DNA from: Thermoplasmata archaeon
GTDB taxonomy: Archaea > Thermoplasmatota > Thermoplasmata > Lutacidiplasmatales > UBA184
Length of the DNA stretch: 64,000 nucleotides
Direction: 5' to 3'
Assembly (NCBI GenBank): GCA_028864975.1
Contig: JAGWLG010000011.1
Span: forward strand, 1-64,000
Positions 47,831 to 56,529 of the stretch are shown here, piece after piece. The notes below the pieces were generated by a model. It made no database searches and was not told where the DNA came from. It saw only the letters and a program-made list of their open reading frames with translations. Position 1 is the first letter of the stretch. Each line of letters opens with the position of its first letter. A program made the position numbers and the translations under genes.

Positions 47831-48952
47831 ATGGCGACAGTCGCGATCGGTCCCATCTTCCTCGGTGTCGGGGTCCTCATCGTCCTCGTGGTCGTCCTGA
47901 TCCTGGTCTGGCGCGTCATCGTGCCGATGTGGGTGAAGCGACGCCAGGCCCAGGTCGCCGAGGGGACCGCCTGGATCGAGGACCGGGCCTGGAACCAGAT
48001 CCAGGCCGCGAAGGCGCTCGCGGACTTCCTCGACCGGGAAGGGACCGACATCCGAGAAGCGGTCGTGCAGATCGAGGTGGCCACGGGAAAGTACGAGATG
48101 AGGCGCTACGTGGAGGCGCAGCGGCTTGCGAAGGAGGTCACCGAGAAGCTCGCGGCTCGCCGCAAGCGCCCCCGCGAAACCCCGGGCGCCTCGACCCCCA
48201 AGCCGGTCGGCAAGCCGATCGTCGAGCCCGAACCCGAGGGCCCCACGCACCGAGACCTTGCCCGAAGGGTGGGCGACCCCGACCCCGAGGAGAGGCCCTC
48301 CCCGACCCGAGGGTCTATCTCCTCCCCTCCGCTCCGGGCCACCGAAGCTGGAGCGGGGGGAGACGTGGAGCACGACGAAGAGGAGGGGAGCGCTCCACCG
48401 GAGGAGATCGAGGACGGGACGATCACCGCCGAGCGCGCGAAGCGACCGAAGGACTTCATGGAGGCACGTTTCATGCTAACTTCGCTCCAGAACGACCTCG
48501 ATGCGGCTCCCGCCGAGCGGAAGCAGGACCCGGCGGTCCGGGAGGCCCGCGACTGGGCCCAGAAGAGCCAGGCTTCCTTCGACCGGAAGGACTACACCGA
48601 GAGCCTGCGTCTTGCCATGCGGGGACGAAGGAGGCTCGGCGGGGCCGGGATCTCGACCATCAGTGTTGGGGCGGGGACCGTCGTCGAGGCTCCCCCGGAG
48701 GAGCTCTCCCCTACGGCGCGCCGCTCCTCGGCTCCACCCCCAACGGCCGCCACCTCCGCGCCCCCTTCCGCCACGGCCCCAACGTCCCCGGCGATGTCGT
48801 GTGGCCGGTGCGGTCGGGTCAACAACTCCGGGGACCGGTTCTGTCGGGGCTGCGGAGCCATGCTGGCTCCTCCCAGCTGTCCCCGGTGCCACCGCCCTGT
48901 GGAAGCGGACGACAGGTTCTGCCACGGCTGCGGAAGCCCGCTCGGGGGCTGA
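47831..48952 (+). CDS. Membrane-anchored protein with C-terminal double zinc ribbon
   Basis: N-terminal TM helix, two helical repeats, then CGRCG...FCRGCG...CPRC...FCHGCG. Confidence 0.8.
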   Translation: MATVAIGPIFLGVGVLIVLVVVLILVWRVIVPMWVKRRQAQVAEGTAWIEDRAWNQIQAAKALADFLDREGTDIREAVVQIEVATGKYEMRRYVEAQRLAKEVTEKLAARRKRPRETPGASTPKPVGKPIVEPEPEGPTHRDLARRVGDPDPEERPSPTRGSISSPPLRATEAGAGGDVEHDEEEGSAPPEEIEDGTITAERAKRPKDFMEARFMLTSLQNDLDAAPAERKQDPAVREARDWAQKSQASFDRKDYTESLRLAMRGRRRLGGAGISTISVGAGTVVEAPPEELSPTARRSSAPPPTAATSAPPSATAPTSPAMSCGRCGRVNNSGDRFCRGCGAMLAPPSCPRCHRPVEADDRFCHGCGSPLGG

Positions 48953-49009
48953 ACGCTCTCGCGAGGCCCCCTGGCGAGGCTGGTCCCGACGCAAGAGGAG
49001 GGACACGTC

Positions 49010-49975
49010 TTGCTCCAGGACCCGACGCTTGCGTGGTTGCTCGAACGCGAGCAGCCCGCCGTGCGCTACCGCGCCCTGACCGAGCTCCTGGGAAGGCCGA
49101 AGAGCGACCCCCAGGTCCGCGAGGCCCGGGCGGAGATCCCTCGGCGGGGGTGGGCCGCGGACCTCCTCGCAAGGCGGGACCCGGGGGGTTGGTGGGTGAG
49201 CCCGAAGAGCCTCTACACGCCGAAGTACCTCAGCACGAACTGGCAGCTGCTGGTCCTCTCCGACCTTGGCCTCACGCGGGCCCATCCCCAGATCCGGCGG
49301 TCCTGCGAGCTCTGGATGAAGGTCTTCGCGCTCGAGGGAGGGGGCGTGGGAAGGAACTCGAAGGGAAAGGGCCACCACTGCGTCGTGGGCAACATGACCC
49401 GGGCGCTGATCCGGTTCGGGTACGTGGACGACCCTCGCATTCGACGGAGCCTCGAGTGGCTGGTCCAAACGGCCCACCCACGCGGGGGATGGTCCTGTTT
49501 CAGCGACTACTGGGCCGGGCGGAACCTCGACTCGTGGGAAGGCCTCTCCGCCTTTACGGTCTACCCGCGGTCGAAGTGGTCCCCGGCGATGAAGGAGTGC
49601 GTCCAGAAGGGGGCCGAGTTCTTTCTGGAACGGGAGCTACATCGCCAGGGTGCGCGCTACGCGCCCTGGTACCGCCTCCACTACCCGGTCCACTACTACT
49701 ACGACCTGCTGGTGGGTCTGGACGTGCTGACCGCCCTGGGCTACGGGTCGGACCCTCGCCTGAGCTTCGTGTTGAAGTGGCTGCGCTCTAAGCGACGCAG
49801 GGATGGGCGGTGGGACCTCGACGCCCAGCATCCGGATGCGGGGGGCGCCTACGGTCGATGGATGCGGGAGCATCCCCGACAACGACCGACCCCGCTCGTC
49901 CTGGAAAGGCCCGGAGAACCGAGCAAGATGGTCACGCTGCGTGCCCTCACGGTGCTCTTGAGGGTGGGGGGCTGA
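49010..49975 (+). CDS. Prenyltransferase/squalene-cyclase-repeat (alpha-alpha barrel) protein of unknown function, paralog 2
   Basis: Collinear with 17843-18805: YTPKYLSTNWQL, GGWSCF, HYPVHYYYDLLVGL and KRRRDGRW. Confidence 0.75.
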   Translation: MLQDPTLAWLLEREQPAVRYRALTELLGRPKSDPQVREARAEIPRRGWAADLLARRDPGGWWVSPKSLYTPKYLSTNWQLLVLSDLGLTRAHPQIRRSCELWMKVFALEGGGVGRNSKGKGHHCVVGNMTRALIRFGYVDDPRIRRSLEWLVQTAHPRGGWSCFSDYWAGRNLDSWEGLSAFTVYPRSKWSPAMKECVQKGAEFFLERELHRQGARYAPWYRLHYPVHYYYDLLVGLDVLTALGYGSDPRLSFVLKWLRSKRRRDGRWDLDAQHPDAGGAYGRWMREHPRQRPTPLVLERPGEPSKMVTLRALTVLLRVGG

Positions 49976-49979
49976 AGAG

Positions 49980-50630
49980 CTGCCAGCCCTCCCTGCCCCC
50001 CGGTCCACAACAGCCGCGGGGCCTCCCGGGTACGAGGGGCGCTTCGACCTCGCAGGCTGGGACCTGATCCATGCCCTCGGGCGGCAGAGCAAGCGCCTCC
50101 CCCGAAGGGAACGTGCTCTGATCGATCTGGGCATGGGCCGCGGACGTGACCTGATCTTCCTCTCGCGCCACGGTTTCCGGGTCCTGGGGGTGGACCGTGA
50201 CCCGATGGCGATCGCGAGGGCCCGGCGGCGGGCGGCAGGTCTCGGGCTGCCTATACGAACGGAGCTCGCGGACCTTCGGACCTACCGGCTCCGGGGCTCC
50301 TACGAGGTCCTCTTCTCCTCCTCGGCCCTGAACCACCTGCCGCCCAGCGGACGGGCACGACGCTTCGCCCACTTCCAGCGTGCGACCGTCCCGGAGGGGA
50401 TCCACGCCATCAACGTGTTCGACGCGAAGGAGTACGCCCGACCGTCGCCGGACATCGATCCCGGAGGACTCCCCTTCCGCCGGGGGGAACTTCGGTCCTA
50501 CTACCGCCGCTGGTCGGTCCTCGAGGACCGCGAACTCGCTCTGGAGTGCAGGTTCGGTGGCCGTCCCCATCGGCACTTCTGGCAGGTGATCGTCGCGCAG
50601 AAGCCCAAGTCAGGGGCCATGACGAGGTAG
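49980..50630 (+). CDS. Class I SAM-dependent methyltransferase (TehB-like)
   Basis: The frame is open upstream of the track ATG; motif I is IDLGMGRGRD, followed by VLGVD, ADL and PEGIHAI. Start uncertain. Confidence 0.72.
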   Translation: MPALPAPRSTTAAGPPGYEGRFDLAGWDLIHALGRQSKRLPRRERALIDLGMGRGRDLIFLSRHGFRVLGVDRDPMAIARARRRAAGLGLPIRTELADLRTYRLRGSYEVLFSSSALNHLPPSGRARRFAHFQRATVPEGIHAINVFDAKEYARPSPDIDPGGLPFRRGELRSYYRRWSVLEDRELALECRFGGRPHRHFWQVIVAQKPKSGAMTR

Positions 50631-50672
50631 CCAGCCCCGCTCCTCCTCGAGGGCGGGTCCGAGCGCGAAACC

Positions 50673-51995
50673 TCAGGCGAACTGCTCGAGCCGCCTCTGG
50701 TGCTTCCAGTCCTTGAGCCAGTGGCTCTGGGTGAGCCATCTTCCCACGGGGATCTCGAAGAACGAGGAGATCCTGCGGACCACGTCTTCGTAGGTCGCCA
50801 GCCGCTCGGGTGGATGGGTCAGCGCGGCGCGGACGTGCTCCCGGACGTTCCAGACCCCGAGGGGCATGACCTGCTCCGGATGGGTCTCCCGCAGGACGAC
50901 AACGCCCGCCTGCCGCTGCAGGCACTCGAGGTGCTCGCTCGTCGCCAGTCGGGCCGCGTAGTAGCACCCCCCCATCCCGGCGTAGGTGGTCCGCCCCTGG
51001 TTCCCCTCCCAGTCCCCCAGCATGACGACCTGCTCCCCGAGGGGGTTCCAGAGCGTGCCAGGGTACCAGGCCTCGATCGATTCGTATCTCCAGGCCCCAG
51101 GAAGCAGGAGCAGGAACCAGCGGTCCCCGAGGGCGTTCAGCGTGTAGAGAAGGAACTCGGAGAGCTCGGGAAGGTCCCGAACCTGCTCCAGGTTCTCCTT
51201 CGAGAGGAGGTCGTCGACCGCCGTGATCGACCAACGCGTGGGGACGAACCTCCGATGGCCACGACGTCCGAGGGTCCCGGCGCTGAAGGCGCGTTGGATC
51301 CGGGAAACGGGTACCTCCTTCTCGTAGAGCTCGGCCACCCCGATCCGGGCCGTCGCGTGAAGGTCATCGGAGGCCTTCTCCAGGCGAGCGTCGACCTTCC
51401 TCACCTCCGAGCGGAAGTCGTCCAGGGGGGCCGACGCTCCGAAGGGCGGAGCTTCGTCGGAGAGCTCCAGGCGGACGCGGGGAGCCCGGTGGAAGTGGGC
51501 CTCGGTCTCCGCGCTGTCTTGGGCGAGCGCCACCAGCTGGACATCTTGGATGAGCCGCGTGCCGCTCTCGGCGTCCGTGACCTTCACGGGGGCGGTCCCA
51601 CGCACCAGGGAGGTACGGTAGTTCACGATCTCCTGGAGGGGCCGTCCGACCCAGCGCTCGGGCGTATCGTAGAGGAGCGTGTCCCCGTGCTCCGGAGAGA
51701 GGAGCGGACCGATGCTCACGTGGGGGTAGCCGATCCTGCCGACGAAGATCCCCGGGGGCGTGCTCCCCTCCCAGTCCTTCTGCCCGAGCATCGGGAGGGT
51801 CCTCCCCAGGCCATTGTAACGAAGGAGGAGCGGACAGACCGGTTTCCCGCAGAGGAGCTGAGCCGAACGGCACCTCAGGCACATCGTCGGGTCCTCTCGG
51901 AGCCCGGGGATGGTCCAGATCAGAGAGGGGTCGGACGAGGCCCCGGGGAGGGGAGAGCTCACCCGACGGCTCTCGGGGAAGATGTCCGTGCTCAT
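50673..51995 (-). CDS. nreA: DNA repair protein NreA (PCNA-interacting)
   Basis: N-terminal CLRC...LCG..CP zinc finger, GSTPPGIFVG, VPTRWSITAVDD, GGCYYAARL and a C-terminal PIP box QRRLEQF. Confidence 0.9.
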   Translation of the reverse strand: MSTDIFPESRRVSSPLPGASSDPSLIWTIPGLREDPTMCLRCRSAQLLCGKPVCPLLLRYNGLGRTLPMLGQKDWEGSTPPGIFVGRIGYPHVSIGPLLSPEHGDTLLYDTPERWVGRPLQEIVNYRTSLVRGTAPVKVTDAESGTRLIQDVQLVALAQDSAETEAHFHRAPRVRLELSDEAPPFGASAPLDDFRSEVRKVDARLEKASDDLHATARIGVAELYEKEVPVSRIQRAFSAGTLGRRGHRRFVPTRWSITAVDDLLSKENLEQVRDLPELSEFLLYTLNALGDRWFLLLLPGAWRYESIEAWYPGTLWNPLGEQVVMLGDWEGNQGRTTYAGMGGCYYAARLATSEHLECLQRQAGVVVLRETHPEQVMPLGVWNVREHVRAALTHPPERLATYEDVVRRISSFFEIPVGRWLTQSHWLKDWKHQRRLEQFA

Positions 51996-52071
51996 CGTTG
52001 GACCGACAAAGTACGGTCGTGGTGCTCAAATAGAGCGACCAGATGGTGAAACGGTCCGCCACGTGCGGCTT

Positions 52072-52146
52072 GGGTCTGTGGGCTAGCTTGGTCTAGACTT
52101 GGGCGTTCGGGACGCTCAGACTCCGGTTCAAATCCGGACAGACCCA
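52072..52146 (+). tRNA. tRNA-Pro (anticodon CGG), intronless
   Basis: Acceptor GGGTCTG/CAGACCC plus discriminator A, anticodon arm GGGCG-TTCGGGA-CGCTC, T-arm TCCGG-TTCAAAT-CCGGA. Confidence 0.94.
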
Positions 52147-52299
52147 TACTCATCAAGGCCGCCCGCTCTCGCCCTCTCTTCTCGACCCCTCCTCGCGGGA
52201 AGGGTCGGTCAAGCCCGAGAGGCCTTCCCTTCCCTTCCCCGCCTCCGTGCGTATGACCGACAGCTCCGGCCGAGGCGAGACGGATCGGCATGCGGGAGC

Positions 52300-53196
52300 T
52301 CAAGCGAGGAGATGGTCGAGATACCCCGAAACCCCATCAAGGTCGCGAACGGGGGGCGGGAAGGACATTCGTTCACCAAGATCCCGGGCGAGCCAGGAGA
52401 AGAGGTCGCGTCCTGACCTCAGCGCGTCCGCGATCGACCCCCGGTCGTATCTTGCGACGGTGCGGGAAAAGTCACGTACGGCGCGCGGATCCGCCCACGT
52501 TTCGAAGAACCTCGCATCATGCCAAACGTCCACGGCACGGTTGCTTCTCGCTAGGGCGTGCCATCGCACCATCTGGACCAGCAGGACTCGCAGGTACCCG
52601 TTGGTGGCACCCAACGATGTGAGGAGCTCGCCTCGCCGGAGCTTCTTGGCGGTCCAGATGAGATGGAACCAGTAGTCGTTCGAGAGATTGGCGAACTCGT
52701 CCGACGTAGGCAGCTTCGGCGGCTCCGCCTTCACCGCCGTGGGCATGACGATCCCGTCCTTGTTCGTCAGGACCCGGAACCCGCGTGCCAGGACCTCGGC
52801 CGCGCCGGGGGTCCGGAGGACCACCTCCTCGGGGTGGCGCATTAGCCGTTTCAGAGCGTAGTAGAGGAAGAGCGAACCCCGCCCCACGAAGGGGAAGACC
52901 GCCAGATCCACATCCTGGCCGTCCTCGAAGAGCACGCGGACCTCCTCCCCCGAGCCCAAGCCGTTCGGCTCGCGATGGACGGTCCAGGGACGGCCCAGCT
53001 TCTCAACCCACGCAAATTCGCGAAGCAGCAGACCGGGCTGACGGACGAAGAGCGCGACGTCAATGTCCGAGAAGGCGTCCGCCGGTCTATTCGTTCGCGC
53101 TTGCGAACCCACGAGGATCGCCAGGCGGACGTTCCCGTCGGCTTCCGACCAGTGTGCAAGGCGGGGGATCCACTCAGCGGCAGGAGGCGCGGGCAT
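52300..53196 (-). CDS. Aminoglycoside 6-adenylyltransferase (AadK/ANT(6))-like nucleotidyltransferase
   Basis: LVGSQAR...DAFSDIDV (GS...DxD), VLFEDGQDVDL, VLTNKDG, FANLSNDYW...KKLRRGEL and FETWAD. Start at MPAPP (53196). Confidence 0.75.
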   Translation of the reverse strand: MPAPPAAEWIPRLAHWSEADGNVRLAILVGSQARTNRPADAFSDIDVALFVRQPGLLLREFAWVEKLGRPWTVHREPNGLGSGEEVRVLFEDGQDVDLAVFPFVGRGSLFLYYALKRLMRHPEEVVLRTPGAAEVLARGFRVLTNKDGIVMPTAVKAEPPKLPTSDEFANLSNDYWFHLIWTAKKLRRGELLTSLGATNGYLRVLLVQMVRWHALARSNRAVDVWHDARFFETWADPRAVRDFSRTVARYDRGSIADALRSGRDLFSWLARDLGERMSFPPPVRDLDGVSGYLDHLLA

Positions 53197-53560
53197 CTTC
53201 ACGGGACCCGTCTCCGGGTTCTTGATGGTGCCGTCGCGGTGGTGGCACCTTTGTTCCTCCTTGAGCCCGGATGGCCCGAGCACCGCCCCCGCACGTCAAT
53301 AGGGGGGGCTCTTCGCGTCTCGCCGGGACCGGATAGTCTCGTGCCGCCCCTCGGTTCAGTCGCGATGCCAGAGCCCCGATGGACGAGGACAGGCGGCGCC
53401 CATCCCTATCCACCCAGGAATCTCCCGTTGTTCTCGTCACCTCTCTACCTTTCCCCTGGTCAAGGCGCCCGTTCGTGATGTCCGGTTCTGACCCGCGTGG
53501 AACCCTGAGGGTCCAGCAGCGCGTGGGACTGACCCTCGGGACACCCGCCCCTCGGGGGAT

Positions 53561-53580
53561 GAATTGGAATCCACCAATTC
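53561..53580. promoter_or_regulatory. Putative transcription-factor operator upstream of the mfnB operon
   Basis: GAATTGG-AATCCA-CCAATTC: perfect 7-bp AT-rich inverted repeat, directly followed by TCTAAG, 78 nt before the mfnB ATG. Confidence 0.55.
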
Positions 53581-53657
53581 TCTAAGACCTCCCAGCCGAG
53601 ATGAGGCTCGAACCGGCCCAACTCCTCGAGGGCGAGGGCGGTCAAGAGCGTGGGACC

Positions 53658-54422
53658 ATGATGTTGATGGTGAGCGTCCAGGACCTCAAGGAGGCCCGAG
53701 AGAGCGTCGCCGGCGGCGCGGACATCGTCGATGTCAAGAACCTCCAGGAGGCGCTGGTCGGTTCCAACTTCCCCCCGGTGGTCCGTGAGGTCCGAAGGGC
53801 GTTCCCGAAGCGCATCCACGTGAGCGTAACCTTGGGGGTCGCGCCCAACCAACCCGGCACGGTGGCCATGGCCGTGTATGGCGCCGCCGCGCTCGAGGCG
53901 ACCTCGGTCAAGGTCGGGTTCGTCCAGACGCACTACGCCACGGCGCTCGACATCCTCAAGGAGAGCCGAAGGGCGCTCGAAGGCTCGCAGACGAAGCTCA
54001 TCGCCGCGACCTTCGCGGACGCTCCCCTTTTCCCCGGTGGCATCGACCCCAAACTGGTGGTCCGACTGGGGAAGGAGAGCCGCAGCGATGGGATCCTCAT
54101 CGACACCCTGACCAAGGATGGCAGGAACCTCTTCGACTTCCTGGACGAGGCCACGCTTCGTTCGCTCGTCACCGAGGGCAAGGAGGCGGGGATGAGCACG
54201 GCCCTCTCCGGTCACCTGAGGATCCCGAACCTGAACGCCCTCGTCCGGATCAACCCGGACATCGTGGGGGTCCGGGGCGCGGTCTGCGCCAACGGGGACC
54301 GGGAGAAAGGCGCGGTCGCCGCCTCGGCCGTAGCGAGGCTCCGCACCGAGCTTGACGCGAGGCTCACCGGCAGGGTCGATGTCTACTCGGAACCTGGCCC
54401 CCCCGACGTGCTGGTGGCCTGA
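53658..54422 (+). CDS. mfnB: (5-formylfuran-3-yl)methyl phosphate (4-HFC-P) synthase
   Basis: MLMVSVQDLKEA...GADIVDVKN..EALVGSNFP..V, VSVTLG, VKVG, LIDTLTKDG..LFDFL, ALSGHL and DIVGVRGAVC..GDR match the MfnB/DUF556 pattern, including both Asp/Lys catalytic sites. Confidence 0.9.
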   Translation: MMLMVSVQDLKEARESVAGGADIVDVKNLQEALVGSNFPPVVREVRRAFPKRIHVSVTLGVAPNQPGTVAMAVYGAAALEATSVKVGFVQTHYATALDILKESRRALEGSQTKLIAATFADAPLFPGGIDPKLVVRLGKESRSDGILIDTLTKDGRNLFDFLDEATLRSLVTEGKEAGMSTALSGHLRIPNLNALVRINPDIVGVRGAVCANGDREKGAVAASAVARLRTELDARLTGRVDVYSEPGPPDVLVA

Positions 54423-54432
54423 GGGAGCGAAC

Positions 54433-54699
54433 ATGCCTCCTGTCGCACTGACCATCGATGGGACGGACCGGACCTGCAAGGGGGTCATCGCGAAGCTCGA
54501 GACCGGCCTCCATGACCTTCCAGTGGGGAGCCTCTTCATGGCGATCGTCGGCGACGTACCGACCCGTGTCGATGTGCGGGCCTGGGCCGACCGGAGGGGG
54601 CACCGCGTGCTCGAGGACCGTACCCGCGATCGAGGAGGCGGCTTCGAGCTCCTACTCGCCAAAGGGCCTTCCATGGACCACGGCGAGATCGGGAGCTGA
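54433..54699 (+). CDS. TusA/SirA-like sulfur carrier protein
   Basis: IDGTDRTCKGV..KL (CPxP-like Cys), DVPTRVDVRAWADRRGHRVL, FELLLAK. SD GAGGGAG, 10 nt after the mfnB stop. Confidence 0.72.
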   Translation: MPPVALTIDGTDRTCKGVIAKLETGLHDLPVGSLFMAIVGDVPTRVDVRAWADRRGHRVLEDRTRDRGGGFELLLAKGPSMDHGEIGS

Positions 54700-54710
54700 G
54701 GGAGGGGGCG

Positions 54711-55742
54711 ATGAGGTACACCCGGAAGGAGGCGAAGTCCTGGGCCCGTGAGAAGATGGTCGGTCAGTGGACGACCATGATGACCCCCTTCTCCACGGAC
54801 GGGGAGCTGGACCTTCGCGGACTCGCCTCCAACATCGAGCGCGTTCTCCAGCTCGGCACGAAGGGGCTGGGCTTCTCCTGGAACATGGGGGAGTTCTGGA
54901 GCCTGACCCACGAGGAGCGGCTTCGTCTCATGGAGGCGGTCCCTCCTCTCGTCCGCGGCCGTGCCTTGACCGCCTTTCAAGTGACCCACACGTCTGAGCG
55001 CGAGGTGGTCGCGCTCGCCCGACGAGCTCAGGAGCTGGGGTACGACCTAGCGATCCTCGCGGCCCCCTACATCATGACGAAGACCGAGGAGCAGGTCCTG
55101 GACTTCGTCTCCCGCGTTGCGAATCAGGTGGACCTGGGCCTGGCGTTCTACAACTCTCCTCAGTTCGGCATCGTCCTCTCGGCCAAGGCCCTTTCCACGA
55201 TGGCGGATCTTCCGACCCTGGTCGCCATCAAGGAAGCGAGCTTCAACCTCTCCCTCTCGATCGACACGCACCTGCAGGCCGGGGCGAAGGCGGTGGTCAG
55301 CGTGCCGGACGAGGAGATCTTCTTCGTCGGGGAGCCGTACGGGATCCACCAGCAGGTGATGTTCGCCAACACCAGCGACTGGCGCTTCGACACCCCCTCC
55401 CGGCATGACTACGTCCGGTTCATCGACCTCGCGACGCGCGGCGACCTCGAGGAGGCGCGGGCCCTCTATCCCAGGATCTGGCCCGTGAAGCGCGTCTCCC
55501 GGAAGTGGTGGGGAAAGCTCGCCGGCAGGACCGGTGGTGCCCTCCCTGTCCAGATGGTGAAGTACTGGGGGGAGCTAGTCGGGATGGTCCATGGGCCGGT
55601 CCGCCCCCCGGTCCTGCCGCTCACCTCGGCGGAGATGACGGAGCTCCGCTCAGACCTGGAGCCCCTCGGGCTCCTCCAGGGAGGACAAGAGAGGTCCAAG
55701 GGGGGAAGGGCATCGTATGGTCCTGCCATCATCGCGCCCTGA
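54711..55742 (+). CDS. Dihydrodipicolinate synthase (DapA)-family class I aldolase, non-DHDPS subfamily
   Basis: TPFSTDGELD, GEFWSLTHEER, FYNSP and AIKEAS (Schiff-base Lys); the GTTGE motif is replaced by WNMGE. Confidence 0.85.
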   Translation: MRYTRKEAKSWAREKMVGQWTTMMTPFSTDGELDLRGLASNIERVLQLGTKGLGFSWNMGEFWSLTHEERLRLMEAVPPLVRGRALTAFQVTHTSEREVVALARRAQELGYDLAILAAPYIMTKTEEQVLDFVSRVANQVDLGLAFYNSPQFGIVLSAKALSTMADLPTLVAIKEASFNLSLSIDTHLQAGAKAVVSVPDEEIFFVGEPYGIHQQVMFANTSDWRFDTPSRHDYVRFIDLATRGDLEEARALYPRIWPVKRVSRKWWGKLAGRTGGALPVQMVKYWGELVGMVHGPVRPPVLPLTSAEMTELRSDLEPLGLLQGGQERSKGGRASYGPAIIAP

Positions 55743-56529
55743 GGACGAGCTCGCTCTCGGGCGGGTCCGTGAGGGCCTTCGGCCGATGCGCCAGACCTTC
55801 ACCGTGGTCGATGGCGGTCGAAGGGTCCGCCTTCGCGTGTCCAGGGTCGGGGTTGGTGCCCTCCTCACCAGGTACGGCCGGTTCTACCAGAGCGAGTTCG
55901 AGGTCTCGGACCGCTGGCGTCGCTACGCGGTCCTCTCTCCGGGAGAGCTCGGCGAGCGGCTCCTTCCGAGGCTCGACCGGGGGAGGGCGCTCCCCCTTCG
56001 GATCGATTCGGGATGCGACACGGGACAGACAGGGGGCGACCTGACCTGCGACTGCCGAGCGCAGCTTGACCGGTCCCTCCAGAGGATGGCGCGGCGCCAC
56101 CGGGGCTTTGTGATCCGCGTCCCGGAGCAAGAGGGGAAGGGGTGGGGTCTCCACCACAAGCTCGCAGCGCATTGGCTGCAGGAGCAGCTTGGCATCAGCA
56201 ACCTGGAAGCGGTGAGCCGACTCGACCCGGGAGCGGAGCTCGACCAGCGGACGTACGGGGGCGTGGCGGCCGTGCTCAGGTCCCTCGGGGTTCCCGTGGG
56301 GGCTCGCCTCCAGCTGATGACGAACAACCCGGAGAAGGTCCGTGGCCTGGAGGCGAACGGCTTCCGCGTGGTCCGGGAGCCTCTGGTCATCCGTCCGACG
56401 CCGTTGACCCGCCTCAACCTCATGGCGAAGCAGCGGGTCCTCCACCACATCGGGCTGGTCCCGGAGGAGAAGGAGGAGCGTCGGAACGCGGCTGGGGACG
56501 CGAGGACCCGAGTTCCGATCACGGCGTGA
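55717..56529 (+). CDS. GTP cyclohydrolase II (RibA)-like protein with divergent active site
   Basis: Zn motif CDTGQTGGDLTCDC (Cx2Gx7CxC), QEGKGWG, DQRTY and LMTNNPEKV. Start overlaps the aldolase stop by 26 nt. Confidence 0.82.
   Translation: MVLPSSRPEDELALGRVREGLRPMRQTFTVVDGGRRVRLRVSRVGVGALLTRYGRFYQSEFEVSDRWRRYAVLSPGELGERLLPRLDRGRALPLRIDSGCDTGQTGGDLTCDCRAQLDRSLQRMARRHRGFVIRVPEQEGKGWGLHHKLAAHWLQEQLGISNLEAVSRLDPGAELDQRTYGGVAAVLRSLGVPVGARLQLMTNNPEKVRGLEANGFRVVREPLVIRPTPLTRLNLMAKQRVLHHIGLVPEEKEERRNAAGDARTRVPITA

Follow-up and report, generated by a model that had tools for sequence, protein, structure and literature searches.

A conserved MfnB-, TusA- and DHDPS-like gene module joined by a rare GTP cyclohydrolase II variant in a Thermoplasmata archaeon: a candidate pathway to an undescribed small molecule

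MfnB is the 4-(hydroxymethyl)-2-furancarboxaldehyde-phosphate (4-HFC-P) synthase of methanofuran biosynthesis, and in the enzyme of M. jannaschii (MJ1099; PF04476; PDB 4RC1/4U9P) the residues Asp25, Lys27, Lys85, Asp151 and Lys155 are taken here to be the catalytic ones. Within the DHDPS/NAL superfamily (PF00701), NahE and PhdJ catalyse aldol condensation or cleavage between pyruvate and aromatic aldehydes. A small protein of the sulfur-carrier type and a TIM-barrel that holds a sugar phosphate as a lysine imine are found together in the thiazole synthase ThiS/ThiG and the thiosugar synthase BexX. The late module of the futalosine-type menaquinone route consists of MqnL/UbiD, MqnP/UbiA and MqnM/UbiX. 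The GTP cyclohydrolase II RibA requires Tyr105 to take its reaction all the way to the deformylated product. The Tyr-less Streptomyces paralogue SCO6655 was reported by Spoonamore and colleagues in 2006 to stop at the formylated one.

Members of the MfnB, TusA, DHDPS/NAL and GTP cyclohydrolase II families are encoded side by side in the window, a stretch of 64,000 nucleotides from an uncultured Thermoplasmata archaeon. Its plus strand carries four open reading frames in the order MfnB-like, TusA-like, DHDPS-like and cyclohydrolase II-like, a gene set not described in the literature searched. The features of the locus are as follows.

53561 to 53580, strand not applicable: inverted repeat GAATTGG-N6-CCAATTC, arms 53561-53567 and 53574-53580, 100% complementary
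53601 to 54422, plus strand: MfnB-like gene (4-HFC-P synthase family, TIM-barrel Schiff-base enzyme; PF04476, 196 bits)
54433 to 54699, plus strand: gene for a small protein of the TusA/SirA fold (PF01206, 23.9 bits against a cut-off of 28.6)
54711 to 55742, plus strand: gene for a divergent class I aldolase of the DHDPS/NAL superfamily (PF00701, 100 bits)
55717 to 56529, plus strand: gene of a His-type, Tyr-less GTP cyclohydrolase II subfamily (PF00925, 92 bits)

A preliminary description had reported four co-oriented genes separated by 10 nt and 11 nt and closing with a 26-nt overlap between aldolase and cyclohydrolase, and the open reading frame coordinates bear this out. The Shine-Dalgarno motifs that it had mentioned were found again as G-rich runs (GGGAG, GGGAGGGGG and GGGGGGAAGGG) lying 5-16 nt 5' of the start codons of genes 2-4. 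Its palindromic operator stands as far as the palindrome is concerned: the 7-nt arms are perfect, they sit in the sole AT-rich patch upstream of the operon, and the complete repeat occurs once in the 3.6-Mb assembly (half-sites genome-wide, 100). Its regulatory role is retained as that of a candidate operator or promoter element. As had also been noted, methanofuran, riboflavin and lysine partner genes are missing from the flanks, where no mfn (including mfnA and mfnC-F), rib or lys gene was seen; the 5' neighbours are Nre and a PF04439 nucleotidyltransferase, and the 3' neighbours are HSP20 and porGDAB. The two non-canonical active sites proved correct as well, with SWNMGE for GTTGE in the aldolase and His152 for Tyr105 in the cyclohydrolase. 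The favoured reading, held at a little short of an even chance, is that the four genes form one operon, lie in a genome region that is variable and accessory, and encode an undescribed small-molecule biosynthetic pathway.

The first gene product has the fold and family of MfnB. It passes the Pfam gathering score (PF04476, 196.4 bits against 22.4), and in a phmmer alignment to 4RC1/MJ1099 (165 bits) all five residues named above are aligned and identical. Because every catalytic residue of MfnB is kept, a furan-aldehyde activity of the MfnB type would be expected. Unlike MJ1099, the protein occurs in non-methanogen hosts without detected Ftr, has no MfnA or MfnC-F encoded nearby, and does not reach the NCBIfam equivalog cut-offs for (5-formylfuran-3-yl)methyl phosphate synthase (207.8 against 341 and 185.3 against 304). 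Also in contrast to MfnB of the methanofuran pathway, it always comes with a TusA-like domain, as a neighbour or in a fusion, and is associated with an aldolase of the DHDPS type. The gene is present as a single copy in the host genome. Since homologues are 250-254 aa long and the alignment with MJ1099 begins at residue 19, the true start is probably the ATG at 53658 or 53661, not 53601.

The second protein remains below the PF01206 cut-off, homologues at other loci have PF01206 matches, and a profile made from 15 homologues matches the solved TusA-like 1PAV (E 2.9e-6, positions 5-74) with Cys placed on Cys. Cys15, in the motif IDGxxxxCxG, sits where the canonical persulfide-carrying cysteine lies and is present in every one of the 66 archaeal and bacterial copies aligned. 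The canonical Cys-Pro-x-Pro (CPxP) is absent and replaced by C-(K/A/T)-G, and neither a cysteine desulfurase nor a rhodanese was found near the gene. Without exception the TusA-like part comes after the MfnB-like one, and this includes genomes with an unlinked aldolase gene; in four of five such genomes the MfnB-TusA pair is kept elsewhere. With ThiS/ThiG and BexX, the module shares a works-like analogy only, as it has a TusA fold with a cysteine and not a ubiquitin-like C-terminal thiocarboxylate, and MfnB in place of ThiG. Among bacteria with the module, all 11 genomes tested retain ThiG, and the module is therefore not a ThiG substitute; a replacement of PdxS was tested and rejected too.

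The aldolase has the class I fold in common with NahE/PhdJ and other non-DapA members of the superfamily, together with the Schiff-base lysine and the neighbouring tyrosine (Lys174 in IKEAS and Tyr147 in FYNSP, both invariant and equivalent to Lys161 and Tyr133 of E. coli). Apart from this, it is without close sequence relationship to any characterised PF00701 member. The DapA-defining features are absent: SWNMGE stands instead of GTTGE (Thr44), PYI instead of PYY (no Tyr107), and no Arg follows YNSP (no Arg138). The score with TIGR00674 is 69 against 206, no NCBIfam model gives more than 78 bits where the cut-offs exceed 200, and all best matches lie far below threshold. The GTTGE-type motif, which holds the carboxylate of pyruvate in characterised relatives, has been lost here, and therefore pyruvate may not be the substrate of this aldolase. 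Many aromatic residues are invariant, and the signature WNMGEFW is accompanied by very strong conservation between bacteria and archaea (48-77% identity). At least 838 homologues exist.

Recurrence across distant taxa, for which the preliminary description had called, is strong for these three genes. Among 80 genome loci from a search seeded with the aldolase, the MfnB-like gene was adjacent or fused in 68 and the TusA-like part was present in 66. The trio occurs as adjacent genes in archaea of several phyla, whereas in Chloroflexota and Planctomycetota all three parts are contained in one polypeptide of ~680 aa. This DapA-MfnB-TusA fusion of SAR202/Dehalococcoidia and Planctomycetota is a one-chain version of genes 1-3 of the window; its aldolase part has 48-52% identity with the aldolase of the window, and the invariant cysteine and catalytic residues are the same, although the domain order aldolase-MfnB-TusA differs from the operon order mfnB-tusA-aldolase. 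The bacterial fusion loci are without the His-type cyclohydrolase and have acetyl-CoA synthetase or Mo-hydroxylase genes as neighbours. As judged from linkage and fusion, the MfnB-like, TusA-like and DHDPS-like proteins are thus shown to be a conserved functional unit. In the source lineage the module is accessory, with none of three same-genus and two of 24 same-family genomes carrying it.

The fourth protein (PF00925, 91.6 bits) shares the fold, the Zn-binding Cys triad and the catalytic Arg with RibA and SCO6655; Cys100/111/113 and Arg178 are kept and correspond to Cys54/65/67 and Arg128 of the E. coli enzyme. The loss of the Tyr is common to SCO6655, His152 occupying the position of Tyr105 of E. 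coli RibA. Where SCO6655 has Met at the Tyr site, however, this protein has His; it also carries Lys in place of Arg94, is extended at its N-terminus by ~45 residues and does not reach the cut-off of the RibA equivalog TIGR00505 (89.2 against 205.85). It belongs to a separate Tyr-less subfamily of about 80 clusters at 50% identity. Of 82 representatives, 68 have Leu at the Tyr105 site, and His is restricted to a small branch. The fourth gene is a rare GTP cyclohydrolase II variant and the contribution of this locus itself to a trio known to recur.

Neighbours of the module vary by lineage (Mo-hydroxylase genes, acetyl-CoA synthetase, acyl-CoA ligase, ubiD/ubiA, thiL/thiE) and indicate no single downstream pathway. 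In Marsarchaeota-like archaea the module shares operons either with ubiD, ubiA and ubiX or with thiL and thiE, associations absent from the preliminary description. At three loci (L063, L073 and L074) mfnB-tusA-dapA-ubiD-ubiA are codirectional and overlapping, at another (L061) only dapA-ubiD-ubiA are present, again overlapping, with the MfnB-TusA pair elsewhere, and three of these four have a ubiX-like gene upstream. At seven archaeal loci the aldolase gene has a divergently oriented UbiA gene as its direct neighbour, the module-adjacent UbiD scores best with the menaquinone decarboxylase model, and one His-type cyclohydrolase adjoins a ubiX-like gene. UbiD and UbiX of the Marsarchaeota-like genome concerned are sole copies, and no MqnA/D was found there. 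These arrangements would fit a role in prenylated-quinone (menaquinone-type) biosynthesis, in which the module would make or modify the aromatic head group for prenylation by UbiA and decarboxylation by UbiD/UbiX, and the cyclohydrolase would be loosely connected, for instance through flavin for prFMN.

Such a role is nevertheless rather unlikely. UbiA/UbiD are absent within 8 kb at 66 of the 80 loci, and in the source genome ubiD-ubiA lie on contig C6, ubiX on C22 and the module on another contig. No complementary pattern is seen in its own family, where UbiD occurs in 23 of 24 genomes, UbiX in all 15 searched and MqnA/D in none of 24; because UbiD is present in 23 of 24 while the module is present in two, the module is not needed for the quinone pathway in this family. 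The module was also rejected as a replacement of UbiX and of MqnA/D. In complete Dehalococcoidia genomes, MqnA/D are found together with the fusion.

A catabolic or central-carbon role was considered as well: the substrate would be a sugar acid, a sulfo-sugar or an aldehyde, and a KD(P)G-type aldolase would act together with a triose-phosphate enzyme and with partners that oxidise aldehydes. The KD(P)G aldolases of archaea are members of the same DHDPS superfamily, and the patchy accessory spread is typical of catabolic islands. Three-subunit Mo-hydroxylase genes with secondary matches to glyceraldehyde dehydrogenase subunits lie 3' of the fusion on the same strand at ~9 Dehalococcoidia loci and adjoin it at L064, and an aldehyde dehydrogenase and an acyl-CoA ligase are near the module in a Thermoplasmata group. 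However, the Mo-hydroxylase link comes from a single clade of kin, and the 'AMP-binding' neighbour in bacteria proves to be a true acetyl-CoA synthetase that shares only 29% identity with its archaeal counterpart. No transporter, kinase or dehydrogenase recurs from one lineage to another, the MfnB-like part retains all the catalytic residues of a furan-forming enzyme whose reaction is essentially irreversible, and an invariant cysteine on a carrier-like domain would be unusual in a sugar-acid pathway. This role is accordingly regarded as improbable.

Equally improbable is a chance placement of the fourth gene beside the trio, as a paralogue from the riboflavin pathway with no relation to it, the trio alone being the functional unit. 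The His-type cyclohydrolase is missing from 77 of the 80 module loci and from five other module genomes, whose RibA matches are of canonical level only, and the wider Tyr-less subfamily is found in quite different contexts, with NMT1-type ABC transporters and in fusions to OMP-decarboxylase-like (often) and guanylate-kinase-like domains. Against this, six of six examined His-branch genes directly adjoin the module aldolase gene, in two orientations and in two archaeal phylum-level lineages (the source Thermoplasmata-like lineage and Marsarchaeota-like lineages, the cases of the latter being kin). In the window, the two genes overlap by 26 nt, and a canonical RibA is already present elsewhere in the genome (contig C53). 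What the preliminary description had expected of the fourth gene was thus borne out in part: wherever the His branch was examined it accompanies the module, but only in two archaeal lineages. Given the 77 loci and the five genomes, the cyclohydrolase is no general component of the pathway; the idea of a dedicated undescribed pathway is supported in part, with the recurrent trio and the six adjoining genes in its favour.

Ordinary methanofuran or methylofuran biosynthesis, with 4-HFC-P made for a formyl-carrier coenzyme, would fit the PF04476 match and the conserved catalytic residues but is most improbable, given the scores below the MfnB equivalog cut-offs, the lack of mfnA or mfnC-F nearby, constant TusA-like and DHDPS-like partners without a role in the known pathway, and the lack of Ftr (PF01913), for which a search positive in both methanogen controls found nothing in six module genomes (the source genome, 89.6% complete, and five others including two complete chromosomes). 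A riboflavin role is unlikely as well, because the canonical RibA lies elsewhere in the genome.

For the favoured reading of a dedicated pathway, a sequence of chemical steps can be proposed, each of which we infer from family membership. The preliminary description had likewise proposed an aldol of furan aldehyde and pyruvate joined to a pyrimidine, which would give a cofactor or pigment. From two triose phosphates the MfnB-like enzyme would make 4-HFC-P or a closely similar compound, in either case an aldehyde with a heteroaromatic ring and a CH2-O-phosphate. The aldolase, with its Schiff-base Lys and Tyr and a rebuilt aromatic-rich pocket, may add pyruvate to this furan aldehyde as enzymes of the NahE/PhdJ type do, and the invariant cysteine of the TusA-like protein could serve as a persulfide sulfur donor or as a covalent thiol-adduct carrier of an intermediate. 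The His-type cyclohydrolase, with Zn and Arg kept and no Tyr, would open the GTP imidazole to a (formyl)aminopyrimidine; the few lineages bearing it would have a dedicated supply of the GTP-derived partner, and other lineages may use ordinary RibA. The continuation of Marsarchaeota-like operons into ubiD-ubiA near ubiX suggests prenylation and decarboxylation of a (hetero)aromatic acid in those lineages.

Based on gene content, the four genes together probably make an undescribed small molecule other than methanofuran. A more specific version is possible, if doubtful: module and His-type cyclohydrolase would build an undescribed heteroaromatic metabolite or cofactor from a triose-phosphate furan (a thiophene, if the TusA-like Cys delivers sulfur at ring closure) extended by pyruvate and, in some lineages, either coupled to a pyrimidine derived from GTP or passed to UbiA/UbiD for prenylation and decarboxylation. 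If true, the product would represent a new class of redox lipid or coenzyme based on furan or thiophene and common to aerobic archaea and SAR202 bacteria.

The window lies on contig C29 of a 3.6-Mb assembly (124 contigs, 89.6% complete, 68% G+C) and carries four ORFs on the same strand, listed here together with a repeat found upstream of them:

53601-54422, plus strand, MfnB-like ORF, PF04476 (4-HFC-P synthase), 196 bits
54433-54699, plus strand, TusA-like ORF, PF01206 (TusA), 23.9 bits, slightly below the cut-off
54711-55742, plus strand, DHDPS-like aldolase ORF, PF00701 (DHDPS), 100 bits
55717-56529, plus strand, GTP cyclohydrolase II-like ORF, PF00925, 92 bits
Upstream of the operon, inverted repeat GAATTGG-N6-CCAATTC, single occurrence in the whole assembly

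The ORFs are separated by 10 nt and 11 nt, followed by an overlap of 26 nt, and G-rich runs resembling ribosome-binding sites precede the start codons of the last three. Coordinates, spacing and Pfam matches bear out the four co-oriented, tightly packed genes of the preliminary description, with the MfnB-like gene probably starting at 53658 or 53661 and not at 53601. All four proteins missed the NCBIfam equivalog cut-offs. An identical arrangement is present in two NCBI assemblies that belong to this species. The genes for archaeal Nre and for a SAM synthetase of archaeal type, together with those best matches that carry a name, suggest an uncultured Thermoplasmata-like archaeon as the source.

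On its upstream side the operon has Nre and a PF04439 nucleotidyltransferase, on its downstream side HSP20 and porGDAB. Synteny with two genomes of the same genus ends at Nre; around window 47831-53283 it takes in no more than Nre and a double-zinc-ribbon gene. Up to a distance of about 11-13 kb from Nre, these two genomes showed no SQHop-cyclase-like gene, TehB-like methyltransferase, PF04439 nucleotidyltransferase, four-gene operon, HSP20 or porGDAB, and this region of the window is variable. The module formed by the first three genes is accessory in its own lineage, as it was found in none of three genomes of the same genus (85-89% complete) and in two of 24 of the same family.

Outside this lineage the module recurs widely. 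The aldolase belongs to a large and very strongly conserved family (at least 838 matches, 63-77% identity across archaeal phyla) with the signature GFSWNMGEFWSL. A search seeded with the aldolase, restricted to one genome per species, yielded 80 loci from Thermoplasmata, Marsarchaeota and MAGs labelled 'Micrarchaeota', Thermoprotei, Chloroflexota (SAR202, Dehalococcoidia) and Planctomycetota. An MfnB-like ORF was adjacent to or fused with the aldolase in 68 of the 80 loci, and a TusA-like part was present in 66. Nearly all bacterial loci encode a single ORF of about 680 amino acids in the order aldolase-MfnB-TusA; the archaeal gene order is mfnB-tusA-aldolase, with MfnB and TusA fused in some. 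Three of the 12 loci that lacked an MfnB-like match were truncated by a contig end, and in four of five genomes tested from the remaining ones the same type of MfnB-like gene was located elsewhere, directly followed by a TusA-like gene. Gene fusion, conserved adjacency and co-occurrence at the genome level thus show that the MfnB-like protein, the TusA-like protein and the aldolase are one functional unit. In the literature searched on the MfnB/4-HFC-P/DUF556 family, this set of genes is not described.

The MfnB-like protein aligns over its full length to the solved MJ1099 (165 bits) and keeps all five of Asp25, Lys27, Lys85, Asp151 and Lys155, so that, judged from these residues, synthesis of a furan-aldehyde phosphate or a chemically very close reaction would be the default expectation. 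The TusA-like profile matches the solved Thermoplasma TusA-like protein 1PAV over its whole length (E 2.9e-6). All 66 copies share its cysteine, which is aligned on the canonical one but stands in a C-(K/A/T)-G context, whereas canonical TusA has CPxP. The aldolase retains the Schiff-base Lys174 and Tyr147, and many of its aromatic residues are invariant; however, the GTTGE motif and the equivalents of Tyr107 and Arg138, which define DapA, are all missing. The non-canonical aldolase active site proposed earlier was therefore confirmed, and by its sequence the protein is classed as a Schiff-base enzyme other than DapA.

The fourth gene was likewise suspected to encode an enzyme with a non-canonical active site, and this held: the Zn triad and an equivalent of Arg128 are conserved in the window cyclohydrolase, but His152 takes the position of Tyr105 and Lys141 that of Arg94. 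A canonical RibA is encoded elsewhere in the same genome, and relatives carry only the canonical type, which is about 39% identical to the window protein. An exhaustive search placed the latter in a distinct, uncharacterised subfamily (about 80 clusters when grouped at 50% identity, scores above 110 bits), in which the tyrosine is absent, an N-terminal extension is common to the members and 68 of 82 representatives have Leu at the tyrosine site. Within this subfamily (noted from proteins P0158, P0160, P0169, P0175 and P0197 and loci L016 and L017), fusion to an OMP-decarboxylase/HUMPS-like domain is frequent and fusion to a guanylate-kinase-like domain occasional, and stand-alone members were seen near genes for NMT1-type ABC transporters. 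Histidine at the tyrosine site is restricted to a small branch (P0001, P0157 and P0304-P0309). Every member of this branch with a readable context directly adjoins the module aldolase gene, co-directional and overlapping in the window and convergent in L062, L065, L133, L136 and L137, and the gene was not found in five other module genomes searched. The His-type cyclohydrolase is thus a specific but optional partner of the module. A Streptomyces GTP cyclohydrolase II that lacks the tyrosine reportedly stops at the formylated pyrimidine, and by analogy the window enzyme may do the same.

No neighbour gene is common to all lineages that bear the module, and the most structured link is to quinone genes. 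UbiA is divergent from the aldolase gene and adjoins it in seven loci. In L063, L073 and L074, ubiX and a DUF981 gene on the minus strand stand before mfnB, tusA, aldolase, ubiD and ubiA, and L061 has only aldolase-ubiD-ubiA, with the MfnB-TusA pair elsewhere. The UbiD of the module-linked ubiD-ubiA arrangement is the sole UbiD in its genome. The DUF981 gene, coding for a membrane protein, was observed on the opposite strand just upstream of the module in five archaeal loci (L063:3048-3704, L073, L074, L037 and L047). In the window's own genome, adjacent ubiD and ubiA lie on another contig than the module (locus L119, G000:C6:8022-10450), and this UbiD scores above the cut-off of the MqnL equivalog, a menaquinone-type decarboxylase.

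Several pathways were considered in which the module would take over a known step. Replacement of UbiX, MqnA/MqnD or PdxS, as well as a thiamine route, each predict a distribution complementary to that of the module, and none was seen. A new thiazole or thiamine route was prompted by L062 (1231-4857) and L136 (6026-10016), where thiL and thiE, both exceeding their equivalog cut-offs, are co-directional with mfnB-tusA-aldolase and immediately precede it, the gaps being very short, and the His-type cyclohydrolase gene lies in convergent orientation at the opposite end; a MazG-like gene precedes thiL and thiE in these Marsarchaeota-type loci (read in L136 only). However, all 11 of the bacterial module genomes tested have ThiG, and with or without the module, ThiC and Thi4 were found neither in the 15 genomes of the own family searched nor in that of the window, and ThiE in none of 25 genomes searched, so that no complementary pattern exists. 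Neighbouring families do have ThiC and Thi4. The own lineage seems to be auxotrophic for thiamine or to use undescribed routes. Replacement of MqnA/MqnD was rejected, since these proteins (PF02621) were found in none of the 24 family genomes (relatives G001-G024), with or without the module, and occur together with the fused aldolase-MfnB-TusA gene in Dehalococcoidia. UbiD is present in 23 of these 24 genomes, whereas the module is in two, and UbiX was detected in 15 of 15 family genomes searched; with UbiD and UbiX present, UbiA next to UbiD in the own genome and MqnA/MqnD not found, early steps of the quinone pathway in this family are unexplained. A substitute for UbiX was excluded by its presence in 25 of 25 relatives searched and five of five module genomes, and a PLP-like pyridine route replacing PdxS by PdxS in 25 of 25.

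Other candidates came from the neighbourhood. An AMP-binding gene adjoins the module in both bacteria and archaea, but an acyl-CoA ligase as shared partner was rejected, as the two versions are not orthologous: bacteria have a genuine acetyl-CoA synthetase here (1045 bits) and archaea an MbcS-like protein, with 29% identity between them. In one Dehalococcoidia clade (L092-L105), the fused gene is followed on the same strand by genes for a Mo-hydroxylase made up of an FAD, a 2Fe-2S and a Mo subunit; it matches 4-hydroxybenzoyl-CoA reductase and xanthine dehydrogenase best, though no score reaches the cut-off. A three-subunit set was also noted in L064. Furoyl-CoA (Hmf-like) catabolism by a CoA ligase and this hydroxylase was not supported, because no locus has both types of neighbour and the link to the hydroxylase is limited to one clade. 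Methanofuran synthesis was rejected, as the formylmethanofuran:H4MPT formyltransferase Ftr (PF01913) was found in none of six module genomes (the own and five others, among them near-complete Thermoplasmata genomes and complete chromosomes of Dehalococcoidia), with both methanogen controls positive.

An undescribed biosynthetic module is therefore the best-supported reading. The preliminary description had proposed a dedicated pathway that might, for example, join a furan aldehyde, pyruvate and a purine-derived pyrimidine. The general idea of such a pathway is partly supported by the conserved module, by its recurrence across archaea, Chloroflexota and Planctomycetota (80 loci) and by Ftr not having been found in six module genomes, while the particular reactions stay hypothetical; the cyclohydrolase, however, is a lineage-specific addition, a dedicated partner in a few archaeal lineages and not a core component. 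In the proposed scheme, the MfnB-like enzyme would convert triose phosphates to a heteroaromatic aldehyde phosphate, which the aldolase would extend, probably with pyruvate, and the tethered cysteine domain might serve as sulfur donor or as carrier of an intermediate. In a few archaeal lineages, the dedicated Tyr-less cyclohydrolase would supply a GTP-derived pyrimidine. For Marsarchaeota-like lineages a prenylated aromatic is conceivable as the end product, and for SAR202 a different compound.

Until now, MfnB chemistry has been linked to methanofuran and methylofuran. In this module, the catalytic machinery of MfnB is firmly coupled to a carrier with a cysteine and to an unusually conserved aldolase, in many uncultured archaea and in the SAR202/Dehalococcoidia abundant in ocean and soil, where Ftr was not found. 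In the window, the module and the one dedicated partner known for it, the His-type GTP cyclohydrolase II, stand together in a compact operon of four genes, which is a good construct for heterologous expression. Once identified, the product would establish a new pathway to a metabolite or cofactor, and possibly it might fill a gap in quinone biosynthesis of Marsarchaeota-like archaea.
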